Shown here piece after piece: positions 1-13,222 of a DNA stretch of 13,222 nucleotides. The stretch is from positions 1-13,222 of the IMG/VR virus record IMGVR_UViG_2654588181_000002. One strand, given 5' to 3'. The translations under genes were made by a program, and so were the position numbers. The DNA comes from a virus. Taxonomy: Duplodnaviria; Heunggongvirae; Uroviricota; Caudoviricetes. The notes under the pieces were generated by a model. The model was not told the origin of the DNA. It made no database searches and worked only from the letters and a program-made list of their open reading frames with translations. The stretch's first letter is position 1, and each line of letters starts with the position of its first letter.

Positions 1-315
1 GATAATGGTTCATGCTACCGGGCTAATGAAACACGGCAGTTTGCCCGGATGTTGGGGCTTGAACCGAAGAACACGGCGGTGCGGAGTCCGGAGAGTAACG
101 GCATAGCAGAGAGCTTCGTGAAAACGATAAAGCGTGACTACATCAGTATCATGCCTAAACCAGACGGGTTAACGGCAGCAAAGAACCTTGCAGAGGCGTT
201 CGAGCATTATAACGAATGGCATCCGCATAGTGCACTGGGTTATCGCTCGCCACGGGAATATCTGCGGCAGCAGGCCAGTAATGGGTTAAGTGATAACAGG
301 TGTCTGGAAATATAG
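1..315 (+). CDS. insD: IS2 OrfB/InsD-type transposase, C-terminal fragment (5' end outside window)
   Basis: Translation from position 1: [104 protein letters not shown]. Recognised from memory as the IS2 InsD C-terminus. The ORF track lists only the internal Met at 49. Confidence 0.8.
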
Positions 316-855: not shown

Positions 856-1506
856 TTAATATCCCATTGCAATGTAATACGCATCAGCAGATGAACCATA
901 TCCTGAACCGGGCGACACTGTAATATCAAATCCAGTGTTATGGACATTTGTCGCCGATACAGTCGGCTGCCCTGACGCGCCAGTAACGTTCAATGTAACT
1001 GTGACAGCAAGGACTCTTGAGAATGTCATCGGGAACCTCATCCCGTATGTTGAAGATACATTAGGGGAGCCATTCAACTGACCGCACTGTAAAATTAATC
1101 CAGACGGAAATTTTTGCGCAGCAGCCGTTGCGGTATTACTTGACGCGAACAGGCTCATATCAGGTATCTGATTCGCCCCTGTACCTACATTCCTTTTAGC
1201 CGCTTCTCCCAAACCAAGGTTTTCGAGAGCCGTTTGCACAGTGCCATCCGATTTGATATCGCCAAACGGATTCTTGCGGCTTAACAACAGCGCACGAAGC
1301 GCGGTAAGCAGCTGGTCATGCCGCCCCTTCTCCAGGCTGGCACCGGATGCCTCCACCACGCTGCAAAGCTCCTCCTGCAACATGTCAAAGTAGTCATCAT
1401 CCAGATCGGTGGCAGGTGTGCCGGTCTGGGGGTTACCACGGGTAAAACCGTTCTTACCCGCGCCGAACTTATCCTTCTGCGCGGTTTTGGTGTCTATACG
1501 ATGCAT
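856..1506 (-). CDS. phage tail fibre protein (short receptor-binding type, Stf-like)
   Basis: 216 aa. N-terminus [55 protein letters not shown]... and a Gly/Ser/Thr-rich C-terminus resemble short side-tail-fibre proteins of E. coli defective prophages (memory-based). It is immediately followed by a Tfa gene, the canonical stf-tfa arrangement. Confidence 0.6.
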
Positions 1507-1808
1507 GGATTACTCCGGATACCCCCTAGTGAATCTCCTGCACCATCAAGATGAAGGAGATAGATATTACTTGAGTTACCTTTTTCACCTTTCCGGGTGA
1601 CTTTTTTTACCAGCCCGGAATCACAAAGGGCCGCAATATGATTCATCACAGAACGTTTGCTAATCTCGCACTGGTCAGCAATATGCTGGTAGCTGGGCCA
1701 GCACTCACCCTGATCGCTGGCATTATCAGCCAGCTTGATCAGAACCAGTTTTCGCAATGGATTACCCACTCGAATTTTCATCGCTTTAACCATCAGCTCC
1801 ATACTCAT
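1494..1808 (-). CDS. small winged-helix/HTH DNA-binding protein (phage replication-initiator N-terminal-like, possibly truncated)
   Basis: 104 aa. Motif ...[47 protein letters not shown]... looks like the HTH N-terminal domain of phage replisome-organiser proteins. ATGA start/stop overlap with the upstream gene (1805-1808). The 3' end overlaps the tail-fibre start by 13 nt. Confidence 0.55.
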
Positions 1809-2041
1809 GCTGCACCTCCGAGATGCTTCATGTTTTTTCCGGAGCGAAAGGCTATAAGCGGCATACTGACGCGGTAATTACGGCCCAGCGGTTCACAAAT
1901 CACCTTCTGACATTCACGGTCAACCAGGCTGACACGTAGAACATGCCCTGCTGGCGTGGTGTACCACTGCCCAACTGTGGGTGTTGATATTTTTTTACGC
2001 TGAAATAAACGGTAAATGTTGAGGAGCAACGGATTAAGCAT
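1805..2041 (-). CDS. hypothetical small protein (78 aa)
   Basis: ORF whose start overlaps the upstream stop (ATG 2039-2041, upstream TAA 2034-2036) and whose stop overlaps the next start (ATGA at 1805-1808), suggesting translational coupling within one operon. No family recognised. Confidence 0.4.
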   Translation of the reverse strand: MLNPLLLNIYRLFQRKKISTPTVGQWYTTPAGHVLRVSLVDRECQKVICEPLGRNYRVSMPLIAFRSGKNMKHLGGAA

Positions 2042-2870
2042 GACGATGCCCTCCGCTGATATTCAGGAGACGGTGAATATGAAAATTAGCCTTATCCGCC
2101 AGACGAATACGTTCAGCTTGCAAGTTAAGAAGGGTTTCTACCAGAACCTGATGTGCCTGCGGATCCGAAAGAGTTACCTTGCGCAGAGCACGTAGTGCAG
2201 CTGTTACATAACTGAGTTTATGTAAGTCTTCATCATTCAGACGAGTGAGGGCTGGGACAGTAGCCATGATGGCAGCCTCCTTGATCGGTGAAATACTTCC
2301 ACCACCGGAAACGCCAATTTCGCTGGTGGTGAACTGAACGGGGTTGGCGTAACCGGTGATCAAGGAAACCGGCGCATCTTTCGATGCCCCCGCCCAGCCC
2401 ACCATAACTTTGATGTGAGCAAATGCGGACGATAAAAAAGACGCTGGCGCGTCATATATCGCCTTGATCAATTCCAGGACGCCAATCCCGGCACCCGCTT
2501 TATAAGGTGCCTGAACAGTGTAACGTCCCGGAATGGCAGAATCAATGTGCTGGTGGTCCTTCACACTCAACAAAATCACGCCTGAATTTCCACAAAGGGC
2601 TAAAGCACTCATGCGGGTAGTCTTTGCGAAGATAGATAACGCGCTGTGTTTCTGGCTCCCAACGAATAACATGAACATAAAGTCCTCTTCCGTCACGAAA
2701 CCAGCGGTTAAGTTCCTGCACAACTCGCCCCCCACAGTCAGGTAAAGTTCTCTGTGGTTACTTACAGCCAGGAGATTTGGTAATCTGCATTCATGCCGTA
2801 ACAACAGGTGTTCAGCGACGCTGACCACCAGCTGTTGCGACAAACGGTTATTTGCCGTTAAACTGTTCAT
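2034..2870 (-). CDS. hypothetical protein (278 aa) in the lambdoid replication-gene position; function unknown
   Basis: Long ORF with ATGA overlap to the upstream CII-like gene (2867-2870). No Walker A/P-loop, no N-terminal HTH and no other motif I can assign. Confidence 0.6.
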   Translation of the reverse strand: MNSLTANNRLSQQLVVSVAEHLLLRHECRLPNLLAVSNHRELYLTVGGELCRNLTAGFVTEEDFMFMLFVGSQKHSALSIFAKTTRMSALALCGNSGVILLSVKDHQHIDSAIPGRYTVQAPYKAGAGIGVLELIKAIYDAPASFLSSAFAHIKVMVGWAGASKDAPVSLITGYANPVQFTTSEIGVSGGGSISPIKEAAIMATVPALTRLNDEDLHKLSYVTAALRALRKVTLSDPQAHQVLVETLLNLQAERIRLADKANFHIHRLLNISGGHRHA

Positions 2871-3436
2871 GCGTTAGTTTCTCCACAACCAGAAGCAATC
2901 GACGCCACGACGCCCGGAGCTGCACACTCGCGGGCGTCATTACTTTCTGAAATGCAAAAGATTTTGTAGACCAGTGCTGCATGCTCCTGCAGCTTCGAAA
3001 TTGAGAGATACAGCTCGTCGTTAATTGCTGTCTTCTCATGCGGTTCCACTACACCGTCTTCGATTGCTGAACGAATCTGTTTTGAATAACTGCCGATCTG
3101 TTCAATGACTTCCAGCAGACGCTGGTTAATATCGGCGTTGTCCACATCCTCGACGTCAGGAAGAGACACAAAGACGCCATTTGCAGACTGCGCCACAGCG
3201 TCAGCAATGAAGTGAGTTCCACCAGCACGTTGCAAAATCATTGCCCATCCCAGCGGGAAAATCTGATCGCCATCGGCACGAAGGCGGTTAAATAATGCGT
3301 TCTCTGTTACATCCAGCCAGTCAGCTGCTTCAGCGTAACCACCCGGCAACTTTGCGATAGTTTTTCTGACAGCTTTCACGTACCACTCAGGCTGTTTTTC
3401 TACTTTCCAGTGATGCTTACCCACGGTTAGCCTCAT
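2867..3436 (-). CDS. phage CII-like regulatory protein (YmfL/YdaT-like)
   Basis: 189 aa, immediately downstream of the Cro-like gene on the same strand, in the cII position of a lambdoid immunity region. Resembles the e14 YmfL / Rac YdaT group (memory-based). No obvious Shine-Dalgarno upstream of the ATG at 3434-3436. Confidence 0.6.
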   Translation of the reverse strand: MRLTVGKHHWKVEKQPEWYVKAVRKTIAKLPGGYAEAADWLDVTENALFNRLRADGDQIFPLGWAMILQRAGGTHFIADAVAQSANGVFVSLPDVEDVDNADINQRLLEVIEQIGSYSKQIRSAIEDGVVEPHEKTAINDELYLSISKLQEHAALVYKIFCISESNDARECAAPGVVASIASGCGETNA

Positions 3437-3467
3437 CGTTCTGTGGTTAAAAATTGAAAGTGTTCTG

Positions 3468-3668
3468 CTAATCTTTCGGATAGATATCCGGTCTTAAGTC
3501 AGATTTCGTAATTGCACCTGACGTGCATTGCTCAAGTTTTTTAGCCAGCACAAAACTGGCTTTTTTATAGCCATTGAAAACCAGCCGTAAGTAGCCAGGT
3601 GTTGAGCCAACTTTTCCGGCCAACTCGCCCTGCTGTTCTTTGGTTAAAGAGTCCCAATACGCTTTCAT
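3468..3668 (-). CDS. Cro-like HTH regulator (YdaS/CroE-like)
   Basis: 66-aa product MKAYWDSLTKEQQGELAGKVGSTPGYLRLVFNGYKKASFVLAKKLEQCTSGAITKSDLRPDIYPKD, divergent from the CI-like gene. GGAGG lies 10 nt upstream of the chosen ATG (3666-3668). The longer ORF-track version (to 3971) would overlap the repressor gene and is rejected. Confidence 0.7.
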   Translation of the reverse strand: MKAYWDSLTKEQQGELAGKVGSTPGYLRLVFNGYKKASFVLAKKLEQCTSGAITKSDLRPDIYPKD

Positions 3669-3670
3669 AC

Positions 3671-3758
3671 AATATGTACCTCCGGTGTACATATTACATG
3701 ATTGAAATGAACCTTCAAGATACTTGTACCTTAACGGTACAAGAGTTTTAATTTCGTT
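3671..3758. promoter_or_regulatory. divergent immunity-switch control region: two inverted-repeat operators plus candidate pR (minus) and pRM (plus) promoters
   Basis: Operator 1 is AATATGTAC-N7-GTACATATT (3671-3695, perfect 9-bp arms). Operator 2 is CTTGTACC-TTAAC-GGTACAAG (3723-3743, perfect 8-bp arms). Candidate pR on minus strand: -35 TTGAAG (3719..3714), 17-bp spacer, -10 TAATAT (3696..3691), overlapping operator 1. Candidate pRM on plus strand: -35 TTGTAC (3724-3729), 17-bp spacer, -10 TTTAAT (3747-3752), ending about 7 nt before the repressor ATG. Confidence 0.6.
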
Positions 3759-4433
3759 ATGAAAACAATCCATGACATCCGGCGGTCTAACGCCAGAAAA
3801 CTGAGAGATGGTGTTGGCGGGAATTCTTCCTTTGCCACTATGATTGATCGCGAGCCAACCCAGACCAGCAGGTTTATGGGAGATGGTGCTACTAAAAATA
3901 TCGGTGACAGCATGGCACGACACATCGAAAAATGTTTCGACCTGCCTGTCGGATGGCTCGATCAAGAACACCAGACAACGAACATCACAAAAAAACCTGA
4001 TGTTTCAATCACTAATAAACAAATCACATTAGTCCCTGTCATATCATGGGTACAGGCCGGAGCATGGAAAGAAGTTGGATATTCTGAGGTTGATTTGAGC
4101 ACAGCAGAAACGTATCCCTGCCCTGTACCCTGTGGGGAAATGACTTATATCTTGCGGGTGATAGGTGATTCAATGATTGATGAGTACCGCCCGGGAGACA
4201 TGATTTTTGTCGATCCTGAAGTACCTGCCTGCCACGGTGACGACGTTATTGCATTGATGCACGATACAGGTGAAACCACCTTCAAAAGGTTGATAGAAGA
4301 TGGGACACAGCGTTATCTCAAAGCGTTAAACCCAAACTGGCCTGAGCCTTACATTAAGATCAACGGTAATTGCTCTATAATTGGTACAGTGATTTTCTCA
4401 GGAAAACCAAGAAGATACAAAATCAAAGCCTAA
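3759..4433 (+). CDS. CI-like prophage repressor (HTH + LexA-like S24 autopeptidase domain; CohE-like)
   Basis: 224 aa with an N-terminal HTH region and a C-terminal S24-type domain (VIGDSM... and FKRL Ser/Lys dyad context). Divergent from the Cro-like gene, and no Shine-Dalgarno before the ATG, consistent with a leaderless pRM transcript. Confidence 0.9.
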   Translation: MKTIHDIRRSNARKLRDGVGGNSSFATMIDREPTQTSRFMGDGATKNIGDSMARHIEKCFDLPVGWLDQEHQTTNITKKPDVSITNKQITLVPVISWVQAGAWKEVGYSEVDLSTAETYPCPVPCGEMTYILRVIGDSMIDEYRPGDMIFVDPEVPACHGDDVIALMHDTGETTFKRLIEDGTQRYLKALNPNWPEPYIKINGNCSIIGTVIFSGKPRRYKIKA

Positions 4434-5343: not shown

Positions 5344-5605
5344 TAGGTCCACCTCGCCTGATGTGGCTAAAAGCAGGCACATAACAGCTAAGTATTTTCA
5401 ACCAGAGAGAATCCTTAGCGTTGTGGTGAATGCGGCTCAGCGCACGCGGGTTAAGGTTGAGGCTGACAGTCGACCTTCTGTGGATACCCACCCGCCTGGT
5501 GTGCAACCTTCGCCAGGCACCGGGAGGCACCCGGCACCACAACTTTATGCTGTGTGTAGTCTTGGCGGTACCAGCTTGTACCCTTGCTTCCGGCTGGTAC
5601 CGTCC

Positions 5606-5704
5606 TTTTTACAAAACAGAGAAGAGCATCACCGGACGACGGGCTCATAACCCAATCCATCCGGGCGGCAGTCACCGCAGGTGTTCTTCTCTGTTTTGTG
5701 GAGA
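5606..5704. other. long imperfect palindrome / stem-loop within a GC-rich non-coding block
   Basis: Perfect 14-bp inverted repeat ACAAAACAGAGAAG (5611-5624) / CTTCTCTGTTTTGT (5686-5699), extendable with wobbles to about 20 bp, enclosing a ~49-nt GC-rich loop. No flanking U-run on either strand, so not a classical terminator. Confidence 0.4.
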
Positions 5705-5747
5705 AACTAACCGACCTTGCAGGGTCGATATGATGAGGAGCAGCAAA

Positions 5748-6110
5748 ATGGCTAGCGAACGCAGTACTGATGTGCAGGCATTTATCGGGGAGCTGGACGG
5801 CGGCGTATTTGAAACCAAAATCGGCGCAGTTCTCAGTGAAGTCGCTTCCGGTGTGATGAACACGAAAACCAAAGGTAAGGTCTCGCTCAACCTAGAAATC
5901 GAACCGTTTGATGAGAACCGAGTGAAAATCAAACACAAACTCTCATATGTTCGCCCGACTAACCGCGGGAAAATTTCCGAAGAAGACACCACCGAAACGC
6001 CGATGTATGTCAATCGCGGTGGTCGCCTGACTATTCTGCAGGAAGACCAGGGACAGTTGCTGACTCTTGCCGGTGAACCTGACGGAAAACTCCGCGCAGC
6101 AGGTCGTTAA
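5748..6110 (+). CDS. YfdP-like prophage protein (120 aa), function unknown
   Basis: Start at ATG 5748 (MASERSTDVQAFIGELDGG...) preceded by GAGGAG (5735-5740). The ORF-track extension back to 5430 translates to Arg/Cys/His-rich sequence typical of GC-rich non-coding DNA and is rejected. First gene of a block recalled as the CPS-53 yfdPQRST-like cluster. Confidence 0.65.
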   Translation: MASERSTDVQAFIGELDGGVFETKIGAVLSEVASGVMNTKTKGKVSLNLEIEPFDENRVKIKHKLSYVRPTNRGKISEEDTTETPMYVNRGGRLTILQEDQGQLLTLAGEPDGKLRAAGR

Positions 6111-9725: not shown

Positions 9726-9801
9726 ATGGTGCCGATAATAGGAGTCGAACCTACGACCTTCGCATTACGAATGCGCTGCTCTACCAACTGAGCTATATCG
9801 G
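9726..9801 (-). tRNA. thrW: tRNA-Thr (anticodon CGU)
   Basis: Minus strand reads GCCGATATAGCTCAGTTGGTAGAGCAGCGCATTCGTAATGCGAAGGTCGTAGGTTCGACTCCTATTATCGGCACCA: 7-bp acceptor stem, anticodon loop UUCGUAA, T-loop GGTTCGA, encoded CCA. Sits between proA and the integrase, as expected for a thrW-integrated island. Confidence 0.97.
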
Positions 9802-9854
9802 CCCTGAAAGGACATGTTCACGAACGTGAATCACGGTGGACAAGGTTAAAACTA

Positions 9855-12572: not shown

Positions 12573-12627
12573 ATGAAAAAGAGCACTCTGGCATTAGTGG
12601 TGATGGGCATTGTGGCATCTGCATCTG
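12573..12627 (+). pseudogene. phoE: phoE 5' fragment (signal-peptide codons 1-18), interrupted by IS1
   Basis: ATG 12573 encodes MKKSTLALVVMGIVASAS, the PhoE porin signal peptide, then runs directly into the IS1 left end at 12628. Divergent from proB as in E. coli. Confidence 0.85.
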
Positions 12628-12682
12628 GGTGATGCTGCCAACTTACTGATTTAGTGTATGATGGTGTTTTTGAGGTGCTCCA

Positions 12683-12958
12683 GTGGCTTCTGTTTCTATC
12701 AGCTGTCCCTCCTGTTCAGCTACTGACGGGGTGGTGCGTAACGGCAAAAGCACCGCCGGACATCAGCGCTATCTCTGCTCTCACTGCCGTAAAACATGGC
12801 AACTGCAGTTCACTTACACCGCTTCTCAACCCGGTACGCACCAGAAAATCATTGATATGGCCATGAATGGCGTTGGATGCCGGGCAACCGCACGCATTAT
12901 GGGCGTTAGCCTCAACACGATTTTACGCCACTTAAAAAACTCAGGCCGCAGTCGGTAA
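12683..12958 (+). CDS. insA: IS1 InsA (transposition inhibitor / N-terminal part of the InsAB' transposase)
   Basis: 91-aa product [91 protein letters not shown] with a zinc-finger-like CxxC...CxxC N-terminus. Confidence 0.95.
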
Positions 12959-13222
12959 CCTCGCGCATACAGCCGGGCAGTGACGTCATCGTCTGCGCGG
13001 AAATGGACGAACAGTGGGGATACGTCGGGGCTAAATCGCGCCAGCGCTGGCTGTTTTACGCGTATGACAGGCTCCGGAAGACGGTTGTTGCGCACGTATT
13101 CGGTGAACGCACTATGGCGACGCTGGGGCGTCTTATGAGCCTGCTGTCACCCTTTGACGTGGTGATATGGATGACGGATGGCTGGCCGCTGTATGAATCC
13201 CGCCTGAAGGGAAAGCTGCACG
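12934..13222 (+). CDS. insB: IS1 insB reading frame (partial; expressed as InsAB' by -1 frameshift at the A6C slip site)
   Basis: A6C motif TTAAAAAAC at 12932-12940. The -1 frame after it reads [96 protein letters not shown] to the window end. In this copy the insB frame has a TAG at 12907-12909, upstream of the slip site. Confidence 0.8.

Follow-up and report, generated by a model that had tools for sequence, protein, structure and literature searches.

What occupies the place of the replication genes in this prophage? The window, the whole 13,222-nt stretch of viral DNA analysed here (IMG/VR record IMGVR_UViG_2654588181_000002), carries on its minus strand four consecutive ORFs, which were confirmed with lengths of 189 aa, 278 aa (2034-2870), 78 aa and 104 aa (1494-1808). 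A preliminary description read them as a CII-like gene, a 278-aa unknown protein, a 78-aa protein and a short HTH protein, and proposed either a different replication or anti-host module or an initiator truncated upon loss of the late region.

Positions 1494 to 3436 correspond to the early-right (PR) operon of a lambdoid prophage of the SfV/e14 type, which is located at thrW-proA. We consider it highly probable (about 0.85) that this operon lacks about 25 kb, that an isrK/C4 RNA switch lies inside a spurious 278-codon frame and that the initiator has been cut to 96 codons. In the proposed arrangement, transcription would run from ymfL through the DUF4222 gene, the RNA module, the 77-aa ORF and the 78-aa gene to the remnant of an O-like initiator (Table 1). 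Within the RNA module it would pass the promoter-like element, isrK (a1, b1 and terminator), C4 (a' and b') and finally a2 and b2.

Table 1 Features of the early-right operon and of the adjoining tail-fibre gene, in window coordinates
Feature	Position	Strand	Basis or remark
ymfL, CII-like regulator gene	2867..3436	(-)	189 aa as longest ORF; 185 aa per PGAP
Spacer (codons 2-50 in the frame of the 278-codon ORF)	2722..2866	(-)	unannotated by PGAP in relatives
DUF4222 gene, 59 aa, GTG start, out of frame in the 278-codon ORF	2542..2721	(-)	Pfam, PGAP, dN/dS
Promoter-like element upstream of isrK	2517..2545	(-)	-35 TTGATT 2545-2540, 17-nt spacer, -10 TACACT 2522-2517
isrK-type RNA (P4 seqA / P1 a1b1 equivalent)	2434..2510	(-)	Rfam RF01394
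C4 antisense RNA	2322..2409	(-)	Rfam RF01695
Downstream targets a2 ATTGGCGT (2318-2311) and b2 GATCAAGGAGG (2286-2276)	2276..2318	(-)	read from sequence
Post-C4 ORF, 77 aa, MATVPALTRLNDEDL...	2034..2267	(-)	sole coding-like part of the 278-codon ORF
78-aa gene, SfV orf38 family, own GGAGG Shine-Dalgarno	1805..2041	(-)	PHROG 1153
Initiator N-terminus, first 96 codons (winged-HTH) of a 272-aa O-like initiator	1520..1808	(-)	L001, PHROG, HTH_36
Deletion junction, 8 foreign codons and stop ending the 104-aa ORF	1494..1521	(-)	three-way alignment
gp53-like tail-fibre gene, equivalent to SfV orf21, on the other side of the deletion	856..1506	(-)	Pfam Gp53-like_C E=1e-13; relatives' annotation

Gene order and truncation of the initiator

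The first ORF is CII-like, as the preliminary description had stated. The ymfL product matches Pfam Phage_CP76 (E=1.2e-13), PHROG 101 'CII-like transcriptional activator' (E=1e-70) and the NCBIfam model YmfL (167 bits, cut-off 90). The prophage also encodes a LexA-like CI repressor, ymfK (Peptidase_S24), and a Cro-like gene. The RNA module is complete in the window, as are the immunity genes.

The order of CII-like YmfL, 278-codon ORF, 78-aa ORF and a 272-aa initiator was also found in SfV (orf36-39), Ayreon and 2H10. A 2.8-kb segment of the intact relative L001, comprising the operon and the full initiator, is 94-96% identical to SfV, 2H10 and Ayreon, and most of the operon region is present in 448 E. 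coli genomes. We take SfV to be a viable phage, and Ayreon and 2H10 to be phages by the status of their records. Provided that this is accepted, the full-length organisation occurs in replication-proficient relatives, a finding that the preliminary description itself had named as speaking against its proposal. Instead of a different replication or anti-host module, the standard early-right region of SfV-type phages is present. The locus is ordinary and has largely been described before.

The 104-aa ORF is chimeric. Codons 1-96 belong to the initiator and are identical to L001 (8471-9289) as far as the junction, while sequence immediately preceding the tail-fibre gene supplied the final 8 codons and the stop. 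Three-way alignment with the intact initiator and the intact ymfQ-tail fibre junction placed the deletion junction at 1521/1520, with a TA microhomology, and megablast homology stops at 1520 and 1521. Relative to SfV, the deletion spans about 25.1 kb; it begins at codon 97 of orf39 and stops 13 nt short of orf21. The second alternative of the preliminary description was correct: the short HTH protein is the N-terminus of a longer initiator, since a 272-aa initiator occupies the same position in intact relatives, and the truncation accompanied the loss of the late region.

The 104-aa ORF matches HTH_36 (E=4.6e-12) and DnaD_N (E=1e-5). Its full-length 272-aa relative falls into PHROG 270 'replication initiation protein' (E=1e-88), and the C-terminal half of the full initiator matches DnaD-like and primosomal PHROGs. 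The initiator shows 24 synonymous and 7 non-synonymous changes, with variable sites distributed 6/3/21 over the three codon positions. With 96 of 272 codons left, a complete initiator including the C-terminal domain is absent from the window. Iteron-like direct repeats lie inside the intact initiator gene (L001 8855-9029), of which the first copy alone survives in the window. Because the C-terminal domain and most of these repeats are deleted, the replication function is, as judged from the sequence, dead in the window. A P-loop or P-family (DnaC-type) loader was found after the initiator neither in the window nor in the intact relatives, in agreement with the preliminary description. The genes that follow the initiator in the intact relatives are those for a PerC-like protein, a protein with a LexA DNA-binding domain, RusA, KilA-N, DUF968 and Q.

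Content of the 278-codon open frame

The supposed 278-aa unknown protein appears from its sequence to be an open frame that runs over the DUF4222 gene, the RNA module and the 77-aa ORF. Its parts are 50 unconstrained codons, the overlap with DUF4222, isrK, C4 and 77 coding-like codons. Two RNA genes scoring above the Rfam gathering thresholds and an out-of-frame DUF4222 gene are thus contained in it, and coding-like behaviour is restricted to the last 77 codons. In the spacer, the alignment to e14 is confined to the first 14 nt and indels are present; among SfV-type haplotypes, 3 synonymous and 15 non-synonymous changes were counted there in the frame of the long ORF.

The DUF4222 gene (PF13973) scored 51.1 bits against a cut-off of 27 and is annotated by PGAP in relatives. 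Its frame has a dN/dS of 0.06-0.25 where dS is unsaturated, which indicates purifying selection, compared to 0.8-3.1 for the long frame over the same overlap. The product is 64% identical to the e14 copy, which lies at the same position as an ORF embedded in e14 ymfM, and structure prediction yielded a small SH3/KOW-like beta-barrel (pLDDT 85). The product of the 278-codon ORF and e14 YmfM share 33% identity over 91 residues (E=8e-8, pairwise), located where the DUF4222 frame constrains the DNA; the dN/dS of the YmfM frame is about 1 or higher (0.8-3.1). Which of the two overlapping e14 ymfM frames corresponds to SfiC is doubtful. The SfiC block of Z-ring formation is known only from e14 clones, which contain both frames.

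Both isrK and C4 lie on the coding strand inside the 278-codon ORF, and 15 further alleles carry the pair. The isrK RNA (RF01394, a family of Hfq-binding RNAs) reached 64.2 bits, the gathering score being 50. It contains the target sites a1 (ATTGGCGT, 2486-2479) and b1 (GATCAAGG, 2469-2462), and the terminator scan detected an intrinsic terminator with a stem at 2453-2440 and a T-run at 2439-2434 (T6). Three hairpins are predicted, with compensatory changes in 7 of 15 pairs across the 16 alleles. The promoter-like element ends 6 nt from the 5' end of isrK and matches 8 of 12 consensus positions, which is below the generic scan threshold. Its -35/N17/-10 arrangement stands at the same distance in 16/16 alleles; the stand-alone alleles come close to the consensus. 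From these features, the element may function as a promoter.

The C4 RNA (RF01695) gave a full-length match (model positions 1-87) of 82.3 bits, the gathering score being 45. Its fold consists of a long closing helix and two hairpins. Over the 16 alleles, pairing holds in 99.8% of cells, with compensatory change at 12 of 27 pairs; none of 500 shuffles reached this value, and slid controls were paired in 34-49% of cells. The site b' (CCUUGAUC, 2365-2358) is situated in the loop of hairpin 2, followed by a' (ACGCCAA, 2350-2344). The downstream site b2 contains the Shine-Dalgarno sequence GGAGG, which stands 8 nt ahead of the start codon ATG (2267).

The pairing sites covary three ways. The 16 alleles have 15 different b loops, each with b1 and b2 sites that fit it, and the number of distinct a segments is 9. 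Duplexes of b' with its two targets have cognate means of -13.0 and -12.2 kcal/mol, compared to -6.7 and -6.5 kcal/mol for non-cognate combinations (b'-b2: -13.0 vs -6.7), and the cognate b1 is the best partner of b' in 16/16 alleles. The advantage of cognate pairing is about 6 kcal/mol for b'-b1, b'-b2 and a'-a1; the contrast is weak for a'-a2 (-9.9 vs -8.3). C4 loops that covary with the isrK targets and with a downstream pair covering the Shine-Dalgarno sequence correspond to the immI design of P1.

The 77-aa ORF behind C4 (11 synonymous and 13 non-synonymous changes) sits where sister alleles have an Ant/Rha antirepressor. The ORF that starts at the ATG after b2 is of the Ant/Rha type in 12 of the 16 alleles, of the SfV 77-aa type in three others and a truncated 120-aa Rha-like ORF in the last. 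A 78-aa query from one codon upstream (2270-2037) yielded no Pfam or NCBIfam match. The 78-aa gene belongs to PHROG 1153 (function unknown, E=1.5e-40); only 41 clusters were obtained for it, all enterobacterial, and it precedes the initiator in all five annotated lambdoid relatives that carry the module in the early operon. Its variable sites are distributed 10/7/18 over the codon positions. The model of its product combines an N-terminal helix with an SH3/KOW-like barrel (pLDDT 79), and its comparison with the PDB gave no significant match.

The C4 RNA of P1 is processed by RNase P and acts with Rho-dependent polarity. By analogy with P1, C4 would be cut out of read-through transcripts, after which a' and b' would pair with a2 and b2. 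This pairing would block ribosome entry at the 77-aa ORF and, through polarity, less of the 78-aa product and of the initiator would be made. By analogy with Gifsy-1 and P4, the a1/b1 copy in isrK could compete for C4 and thereby set a threshold. Control of replication by C4 hinges on the assumed polarity, because the 78-aa gene and the initiator have strong Shine-Dalgarno sequences of their own. The precedents differ in sign: C4 is a repressor in P1, while in Gifsy-1 translation is activated by IsrK acting in trans.

A wider proposal can be put forward tentatively, and we regard it as somewhat more doubtful than probable. The SOS-inducible division inhibitor SfiC of e14-type prophages, now equated with the 112-aa YmfM, may be the 59-aa DUF4222 barrel, the YmfM and 'Ash' frames being unconstrained. 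The SfV-type switch would gate the 77-aa ORF and the initiator, not an antirepressor, and the long frame would perhaps be kept open so that translation from ymfL overrides the switch.

Alternative readings of the open frame

The 278-codon ORF could be a genuine regulatory protein of the Ash family, as in the labels of SfV orf37, PHROGs ('transcriptional regulator') and partly PGAP, with the RNA matches as a secondary feature. Pfam, PHROGs and PGAP treat the region as protein: residues 117-210 match Phage_ASH (PF10554) with 67.9 bits against a cut-off of 26, PHROG 3960 is matched with E=3e-110, and the start of the ORF overlaps ymfL. The frame is also free of stops in 57/57 SfV-type haplotypes and in 9/9 alleles from PR operons. 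However, protein-level constraint is missing from the 'Ash' stretch. In the RNA region, 7 changes are synonymous and 31 non-synonymous, variability is lowest at the third codon position (18/17/8), and the substitutions are compensatory for RNA helices and intermolecular pairing; over the DUF4222 overlap, the dN/dS of this frame is about 1 or higher. The homologous stretch of 7/7 stand-alone alleles contains 2-4 in-frame stops, so that the Phage_ASH stretch is interrupted in 7 of 16 alleles. The limits of the 'domain' (2522-2241) coincide with the promoter-like element, isrK, C4 and b2, and distant 'Ash' homologues share only residues of about 104-210, which is the RNA region. In phage ZX5, an annotated 37-aa 'ash family protein' was placed on top of C4, and no related solved structure was found. 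A real Ash protein is therefore improbable, and the 'Ash' protein family is likely to be spurious. The name given to it in Pfam derives from P4.

The open long frame would still allow the RNA module to be translated. A dual use, compatible with the main reading, is unlikely but deserves more weight than an Ash protein. In the PR context, ribosomes coming from the ATGA at ymfL would translate the spacer, isrK and C4 and melt the isrK terminator and the C4 fold; the frame would therefore matter as a regulatory leader and its amino-acid sequence would not. The distribution of stops between PR-context and stand-alone alleles fits this, despite divergence of the RNA region to about 70% identity. 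In e14, too, a frame of 112 codons runs on without a stop from this ATGA through a non-homologous spacer that differs in length by 30 nt, a multiple of three, and expression of anrP in Gifsy-1 needs translation of orf45 across the equivalent region (PMC4825925). Against it, the chance level for the variable loops alone, about 1%, is a rough estimate and not a formal test, PGAP leaves the spacer without annotation, and openness was possibly inherited by descent because the nine PR-context alleles are related. Far less credible is the maintained, non-canonical replication or anti-host module of CII-like, 278-aa, 78-aa and short HTH proteins, working as it stands in the window. The absence of a P/DnaC-like loader from the window and intact relatives would suit it, as would the short overlaps at three junctions (ATGA at 2867-2870, 8 nt at 2034-2041 and ATGA at 1805-1808). 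Four coupled junctions had been claimed; the fourth, between the 104-aa ORF and the tail-fibre gene (1494-1506), is a by-product of the deletion and not maintained. Since the 278-codon ORF runs over an RNA module and an out-of-frame gene, the argument from coupling was built on a wrong gene model. The short HTH ORF is a deletion product with a foreign end, most iteron-like repeats of the initiator gene are gone, and SfV, Ayreon and 2H10 have the same genes with a full initiator.

Comparison with known systems

The composite reading, an SfV/e14-type PR operon with an embedded isrK/C4 switch, can be compared to several described systems. The immI region of P1 and P7 (c4, icd, ant) likewise has a C4 RNA on the same strand as its targets, with a'/b' complementary to one upstream (a1b1) and one downstream copy (a2b2), and b2 spanning the ribosome-binding site of the ORF that comes first downstream. 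Heteroimmunity in P1 and P7 is based on loops that vary between alleles together with their targets (for c4 function, see PMC12197685). In contrast, the module of the window is part of a lambdoid PR operon, with a CII-like gene before it and a replication initiator after it, and the 77-aa ORF takes the place of icd and the antirepressor gene ant.

In the isrK-orf45-anrP region of Gifsy-1 (Salmonella), IsrK has been described as analogous and structurally homologous to P4 seqA, and STnc1160 is a stable RNA made further downstream (PMC4825925). For orf45, the nucleotide sequence is conserved and the amino-acid sequence is variable (PMC12197685). Shared with the window are an isrK RNA with its own promoter (in the window, a promoter-like element) and a leaky intrinsic terminator, STnc1160 at the position of C4, and RNA pairing that controls (in the window, would control) the ribosome-binding site of the downstream ORF. 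The Gifsy-1 module precedes the antirepressor-like AnrP, which turns on antQ, whereas the 77-aa ORF, the 78-aa gene and a replication gene follow in the window. The satellite phage P4 (CI RNA, seqA, seqC) also has an antisense RNA, processed in P4 and presumably in the window, flanked by complementary sites on the same transcript, before replication genes. There, CI causes transcription to terminate prematurely and is the sole immunity factor, whereas the prophage of the window adds ymfK and the Cro-like gene.

The early-right region of Shigella phage SfV, orf36-orf39 (U82619), has the same gene order, 95.7% identity to the 2.8-kb segment of the relative and 99.6% identity in the RNA region; its orf37 was labelled 'immunity region' by the depositors. 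It differs from the window in its full 272-aa orf39 initiator and in all the late genes. The e14 element of E. coli K-12 (ymfL, ymfM/SfiC, oweE) has the same CII-like gene, an ATGA-coupled open frame and an embedded DUF4222 ORF, and its O-like initiator is deletion-truncated as well. The isrK/C4 module was looked for in e14 and is absent, as are the 77-aa ORF and the 78-aa gene; DUF4222 abuts the initiator, whose sequence type differs (38% identity over 55 residues). With lambda O/P, the SfV-type phages share an initiator with an N-terminal winged HTH and iteron-like direct repeats in the middle of the gene. They differ in that neither a P/DnaC-type loader nor a DnaB-type helicase follows the initiator, and in three extra elements between cII and the initiator, namely DUF4222, the RNA module with the 77-aa ORF, and the 78-aa gene.

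Early operon, initiator and deletion junction

The window holds a decayed lambdoid prophage that adjoins tRNA-Thr(CGU) and proA/proB, and IS sequences are found on both sides of this remnant. On the minus strand, a Cro-like gene is followed by the four ORFs under study, namely ymfL, a 278-codon open frame (ORF278), a 78-aa ORF and a 104-aa ORF, and then directly by a gp53-like tail-fibre gene and a tail-fibre assembly gene. The coordinates of the four ORFs and three of their overlaps (ATGA, 8 nt and ATGA) match the preliminary description. The whole window was not found in any single complete E. coli genome of the collection searched, and the host may belong to an IS-rich group, for example Shigella. 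By megablast, the stretch 1400-3600 is mostly present in 448 complete E. coli genomes, with the homology always starting at window position 1520.

Features of the window and of the RNA module within ORF278
Feature	Position	Strand	Sequence, score or remark
IS3-family fragment	1-315		3' end of transposase, beside tail-fibre assembly gene
104-aa ORF	1494-1808	-	truncated initiator
78-aa ORF	1805-2041	-
ORF278	2034-2870	-
77-aa post-C4 ORF (SfV type)	2267-2034	-	starts at post-b2 ATG
b2	2286-2276		GATCAAGGAGG
a2	2318-2311		ATTGGCGT
C4 antisense RNA, RF01695	2409-2322	-	inside ORF278; Rfam 82.3 bits (gathering 45)
a', segment after C4 hairpin 2	2350-2344		ACGCCAA
b', loop of C4 hairpin 2	2365-2358		CCUUGAUC
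isrK RNA, RF01394	2510-2434	-	inside ORF278; Rfam 64.2 bits (gathering 50)
b1, in isrK	2469-2462		GATCAAGG
a1, loop of isrK hairpin 2	2486-2479		ATTGGCGT
Promoter-like element	2517-2545	-	TTGATT/TACACT; alignment of 16 alleles
DUF4222 frame	2721-2542		59 aa, other frame than ORF278
ymfL	2867-3436	-
Cro-like gene	3468-3971	-	167 aa, GTG start, in mechanical ORF list
ymfK, LexA-like CI repressor	3759-4433	+	Peptidase_S24
226-aa ORF	5430-6110
tRNA-Thr(CGU)	9727-9802
IS1	from about 12602 (12602-13222)		at phoE

In an intact relative from strain 20A24 (L001), the gene order is ymfT, ymfL, DUF4222, 'ash', the 78-aa gene and a gene for a 272-aa HTH protein, followed by PerC-like, LexA-DBD-like, RusA, KilA-N, DUF968, Q and lysis genes. 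The 2.8-kb segment of L001 with the operon and the full initiator shares 95.7% identity with SfV (orf36-orf39), 95.1% with 2H10 and 94.5% with Ayreon, the latter two deposited as phage genomes and Ayreon with E. coli K12 as host. Segments of this type also occur in Stx2c phages, cdtI and mEp460. For two ORFs, the window differs from the annotation of the relatives. The Cro-like gene is represented there by its last 66 aa only (ymfT, YdaS-family HTH); the extra N-terminal stretch in the window extends over the operator and partly into ymfK, which is encoded on the opposite strand. The 226-aa ORF covers a frameshifted hypothetical gene (PGAP) and yfdP of the relatives; its first half may be spurious, or the frameshift may have been repaired.

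The operon had been described as non-canonical, possibly a different replication or anti-host module. This description was to be given up if inducible relatives able to replicate proved to be organised identically over the full length. Such an organisation is present in SfV, a viable temperate phage, as well as in 2H10 and Ayreon, and neither part of the description is upheld: the region is a standard SfV-type early operon beheaded by a deletion and therefore offers no new replication biology. A P/DnaC-type loader is indeed missing, as had been pointed out; this is also true of SfV-type phages and is a known property of the group. Overall, the region belongs to known kinds, an SfV early region and a C4/isrK antisense switch.

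The suggestion that the short HTH protein is the N-terminus of a longer initiator, truncated when the late region was lost, is borne out by the 272-aa relatives and by the junction mapped in the alignment. The 272-aa protein was assigned to PHROG 270 'replication initiation protein' (E=1e-88), with matches to DnaD-like/primosomal PHROGs in the C-terminal half. The N-terminus resembles HTH_36/DnaD_N; a sequence search of the full initiator against PDB chains gave no meaningful match. In a three-way alignment, the break falls after ...CTAGGGGGTA, from where the window continues as the sequence that the relatives carry 13 nt before the tail-fibre ATG. Hence, codons 1-96 of the 104-aa ORF are authentic initiator sequence, while codons 97-104 (IRSNPCIV) and the stop codon are foreign. 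Both sides of the junction have TA in common, and reciprocal homology stops at 1520 and 1521. On SfV coordinates, the missing DNA begins at orf39 codon 97, includes Q and the genes for lysis, head and tail, and stops where orf20 ends, about 8.5 + 16.7 = 25.1 kb of 37.1 kb.

The intact initiator gene features a cluster of direct repeats mid-gene (L001 8855-9029), located in a low-complexity linker and consisting of GGTGCAGGAGATTCAC-type copies about 21-45 nt apart and three GAACCAGTCA copies, of which direct repeats the window keeps only the first copy. Lambda-type initiators carry iterons mid-gene, the same place as the SfV-type repeats, and these iteron-like repeats are probably the origin.

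Independent deletions were observed to have one end inside the O-like initiator, at codon 96 with a tail-fibre gene following in the window and at codon 40 with baseplate J following in strain YZ_2_2 (L002 7107-7226). In the e14 element of E. coli K-12, oweE (L085 6171-6404) retains 78 initiator codons joined to terminase. The pattern suggests that replication was lost repeatedly and the immunity region kept.

Overlapping frames and the SfiC assignment

ORF278 is not one gene. In relatives, PGAP breaks it up, with a DUF4222 gene of 59 aa read in a different frame, a 145-nt gap and a 181-aa 'ash family protein'. Against Pfam PF13973, the DUF4222 frame scores 51 bits (cut-off 27). Within the ORF278 frame itself, the N-terminal 91 residues are weakly similar to YmfM of e14 (33% identity), the first 50 codons do not align with e14 past 'MNSLT', and searches with ORF278 against PDB chains yielded no meaningful match by sequence (Rab27 and keratinase at E>0.04 with the ORF278 and initiator queries).

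After ymfL, e14 has the 112-aa gene ymfM and an O-like gene in truncated form. The ymfM gene (L085 5823-6181), the counterpart of window 2542-2870, holds an out-of-frame 59-aa DUF4222 ORF (L085 6002-6181) that is preceded by a strong Shine-Dalgarno sequence (AAGGAG) and is 64% identical to the window copy. The codon test on close SfV-type haplotypes was too shallow for DUF4222 and YmfM, and pairwise dN/dS values between diverged alleles (window, L079, L087, L088 and e14) were used. These values range from 0.06 to 0.25 for the DUF4222 frame and from 0.8 to 3.1 for the ORF278 frame, and the conserved core differs from e14 only at sites that are synonymous for DUF4222. Judged from these substitution patterns, it is the DUF4222 frame that is under purifying selection, and not that of YmfM.

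Expression of ymfM causes filamentation, and the gene was equated with SfiC, the SOS-inducible division inhibitor of e14, in 2020 (bioRxiv 10.1101/2020.11.19.390815). The published filamentation clones carry both frames, since 53 of the 59 DUF4222 codons are present in the pBAD24 ymfM construct and all 59 in library clone D1-8E; frame-specific mutants are not described in that work. A literature search retrieved no functional paper that mentions DUF4222. The identity of the SfiC gene accordingly rests on clones that also hold the better-conserved DUF4222 frame, and we estimate a chance of about one in three that the inhibitor is the DUF4222 product and not YmfM.

The family of the 78-aa protein is narrow (41 clusters) and enterobacterial, and the gene is always positioned just before this initiator type. 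The structural model of the protein consists of a helix and an SH3/KOW-like barrel without a significant structural neighbour. Paralogy with DUF4222 was considered (pairwise BLAST E=0.017) but rejected upon profile-profile comparison (probability 0.6%, E=0.1). Both proteins are modelled as small SH3/KOW-like barrels that share their top PDB matches, none of them significant, and fold searches with either model found no match at E<=0.001; the predicted structures suggest a common fold class only. Neither for the 78-aa ORF nor for YmfM or the 77-aa post-C4 ORF were Pfam or NCBIfam families found, even at E<=10.

RNA genes under the 'Ash' label

The 'Ash' part of ORF278 coincides with RNA genes. 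The limits of the Phage_ASH match in Pfam (residues 117-210, window 2522-2241) enclose precisely the promoter-like element, isrK, C4, the target sites after them and the opening codons of the ORF that follows. In a search of 1.8 billion representative proteins, distant 'Ash' homologues were found to have only residues ~104-210 in common; many start a few residues before this stretch, and the C-termini after it are unrelated and often Rha/Ant-like. The annotation of phage ZX5 places a 37-aa 'ash family protein' directly over C4 (L094 1599-1712).

Codon changes in SfV-type haplotypes were counted feature by feature, with ymfL lacking a usable set. Over the RNA stretch, the ORF278 frame shows 7 synonymous and 31 non-synonymous changes (18/17/8 by codon position, the third being least variable), compared to 24 and 7 (6/3/21) in the initiator N-terminus. 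The counts are 11 and 13 for the last 77 codons of ORF278 and 17 and 20 for the 78-aa gene.

The isrK and C4 pair was identified in 15 further alleles from phage records, including Stx1, Stx2 and Stx2c phages, VT2-Sakai, ArgO145, cdtI, mEp460, Salmonella 118970_sal3, a Klebsiella prophage, the epsilon15-like ZX5 and Tyrion, APSE-2 and Hafnia Meifeng; it is absent from e14. RF03163 ('a1, b1 targets of C4') was also reported by Rfam in VT2-Sakai and phi315. In the Rfam structure of C4, 99.8% of cells are paired in the 16 sequences and both sides have changed in 12 of 27 pairs; none of 500 shuffles scored as high, and slid partners gave 34-49% pairing. The isrK RNA folds into three hairpins, the last of which is an intrinsic terminator, with compensatory change in 7 of 15 pairs. 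All 16 alleles feature the promoter-like element upstream of isrK (-35, 17 nt, -10, then 6-7 nt to the isrK 5' end), which is near consensus in the stand-alone alleles, i.e. those outside a PR operon. It was missed by a generic promoter scan and revealed by the alignment of the 16 alleles alone. The DUF4222 stop codon of the window falls within its -35 hexamer.

Taken together, the Pfam, PGAP and PHROG 'Ash family protein' or 'transcriptional regulator' appears to be translated isrK and C4 RNA genes and target sites. Thousands of enterobacterial prophage ORFs (2111 matches) carry the label, and annotators and surveys of defence systems or regulators should take 'Ash' as an RNA module.

The ORF278 frame, in which the post-C4 ATG also lies, stays open over isrK and C4 in PR-operon alleles despite the lack of amino-acid constraint. 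In the comparison of window 2268-2870 and loci L079, L086-L089, L095 and L099, no stops through isrK and C4 were present in any of the nine PR-operon alleles, and usually none back to the ymfL stop; each of the seven stand-alone alleles has 2-4 stops. The frame is likewise uninterrupted in e14, where the spacer is non-homologous and longer by 30 nt. The open frame may reflect inheritance by descent together with chance, or regulatory translation from ymfL through the module.

Allelic pairing and the proposed switch

The complementary C4 segments a' and b' match target sites upstream (a1 and b1) and downstream (a2 and b2). Site b2 is located 8 nt upstream of the ATG at 2267, and the Shine-Dalgarno sequence for this start falls within it. 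The 16 alleles have 15 distinct b loops and 9 distinct a segments, each with its own matching targets. Mean duplex energies of cognate pairs and of pairs between different alleles are -13.0 and -6.7 kcal/mol for b'-b2, -12.2 and -6.5 kcal/mol for b'-b1 and -14.3 and -8.4 kcal/mol for a'-a1, whereas the contrast is weak for a'-a2 (-9.9 and -8.3 kcal/mol). In 16 of 16 cases, the own isrK was the best binder of the C4 b loop and no foreign isrK equalled it. The structure and pairing of C4 and isrK are under selection.

The ORF starting at the post-b2 ATG encodes an Ant/Rha antirepressor of 181-257 aa in 12 of 16 alleles; in SfV-type alleles, including the window, it is the 77-aa ORF, with the 78-aa gene and the initiator next in order, both having a GGAGG of their own. 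Transcripts from PR and/or the isrK promoter-like element would end in part at the isrK terminator, and read-through would yield C4, which would mask b2. Translation of the 77-aa ORF would then be prevented and downstream expression might be lowered, with isrK as a putative competitor. Fifteen pairing specificities in 16 phages, Stx phages among them, predict RNA-based cross-immunity groups among lambdoid and Stx prophages, and a remnant such as that of the window could still act in trans on incoming phages with the same allele.

The a1b1, c4 and a2b2 layout of the window is the same as that of the P1/P7 immI operon, which in P1 involves icd coupling, RNase P processing and Rho polarity. The c4 RNA of P1/P7 acts by blocking the ribosome-binding site that precedes the antirepressor, and it is the determinant of heteroimmunity (PMC12197685). 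The isrK-orf45-anrP region of Gifsy-1 likewise has this layout; there, IsrK resembles P4 seqA and a stable RNA, STnc1160, is located downstream (PMC4825925).
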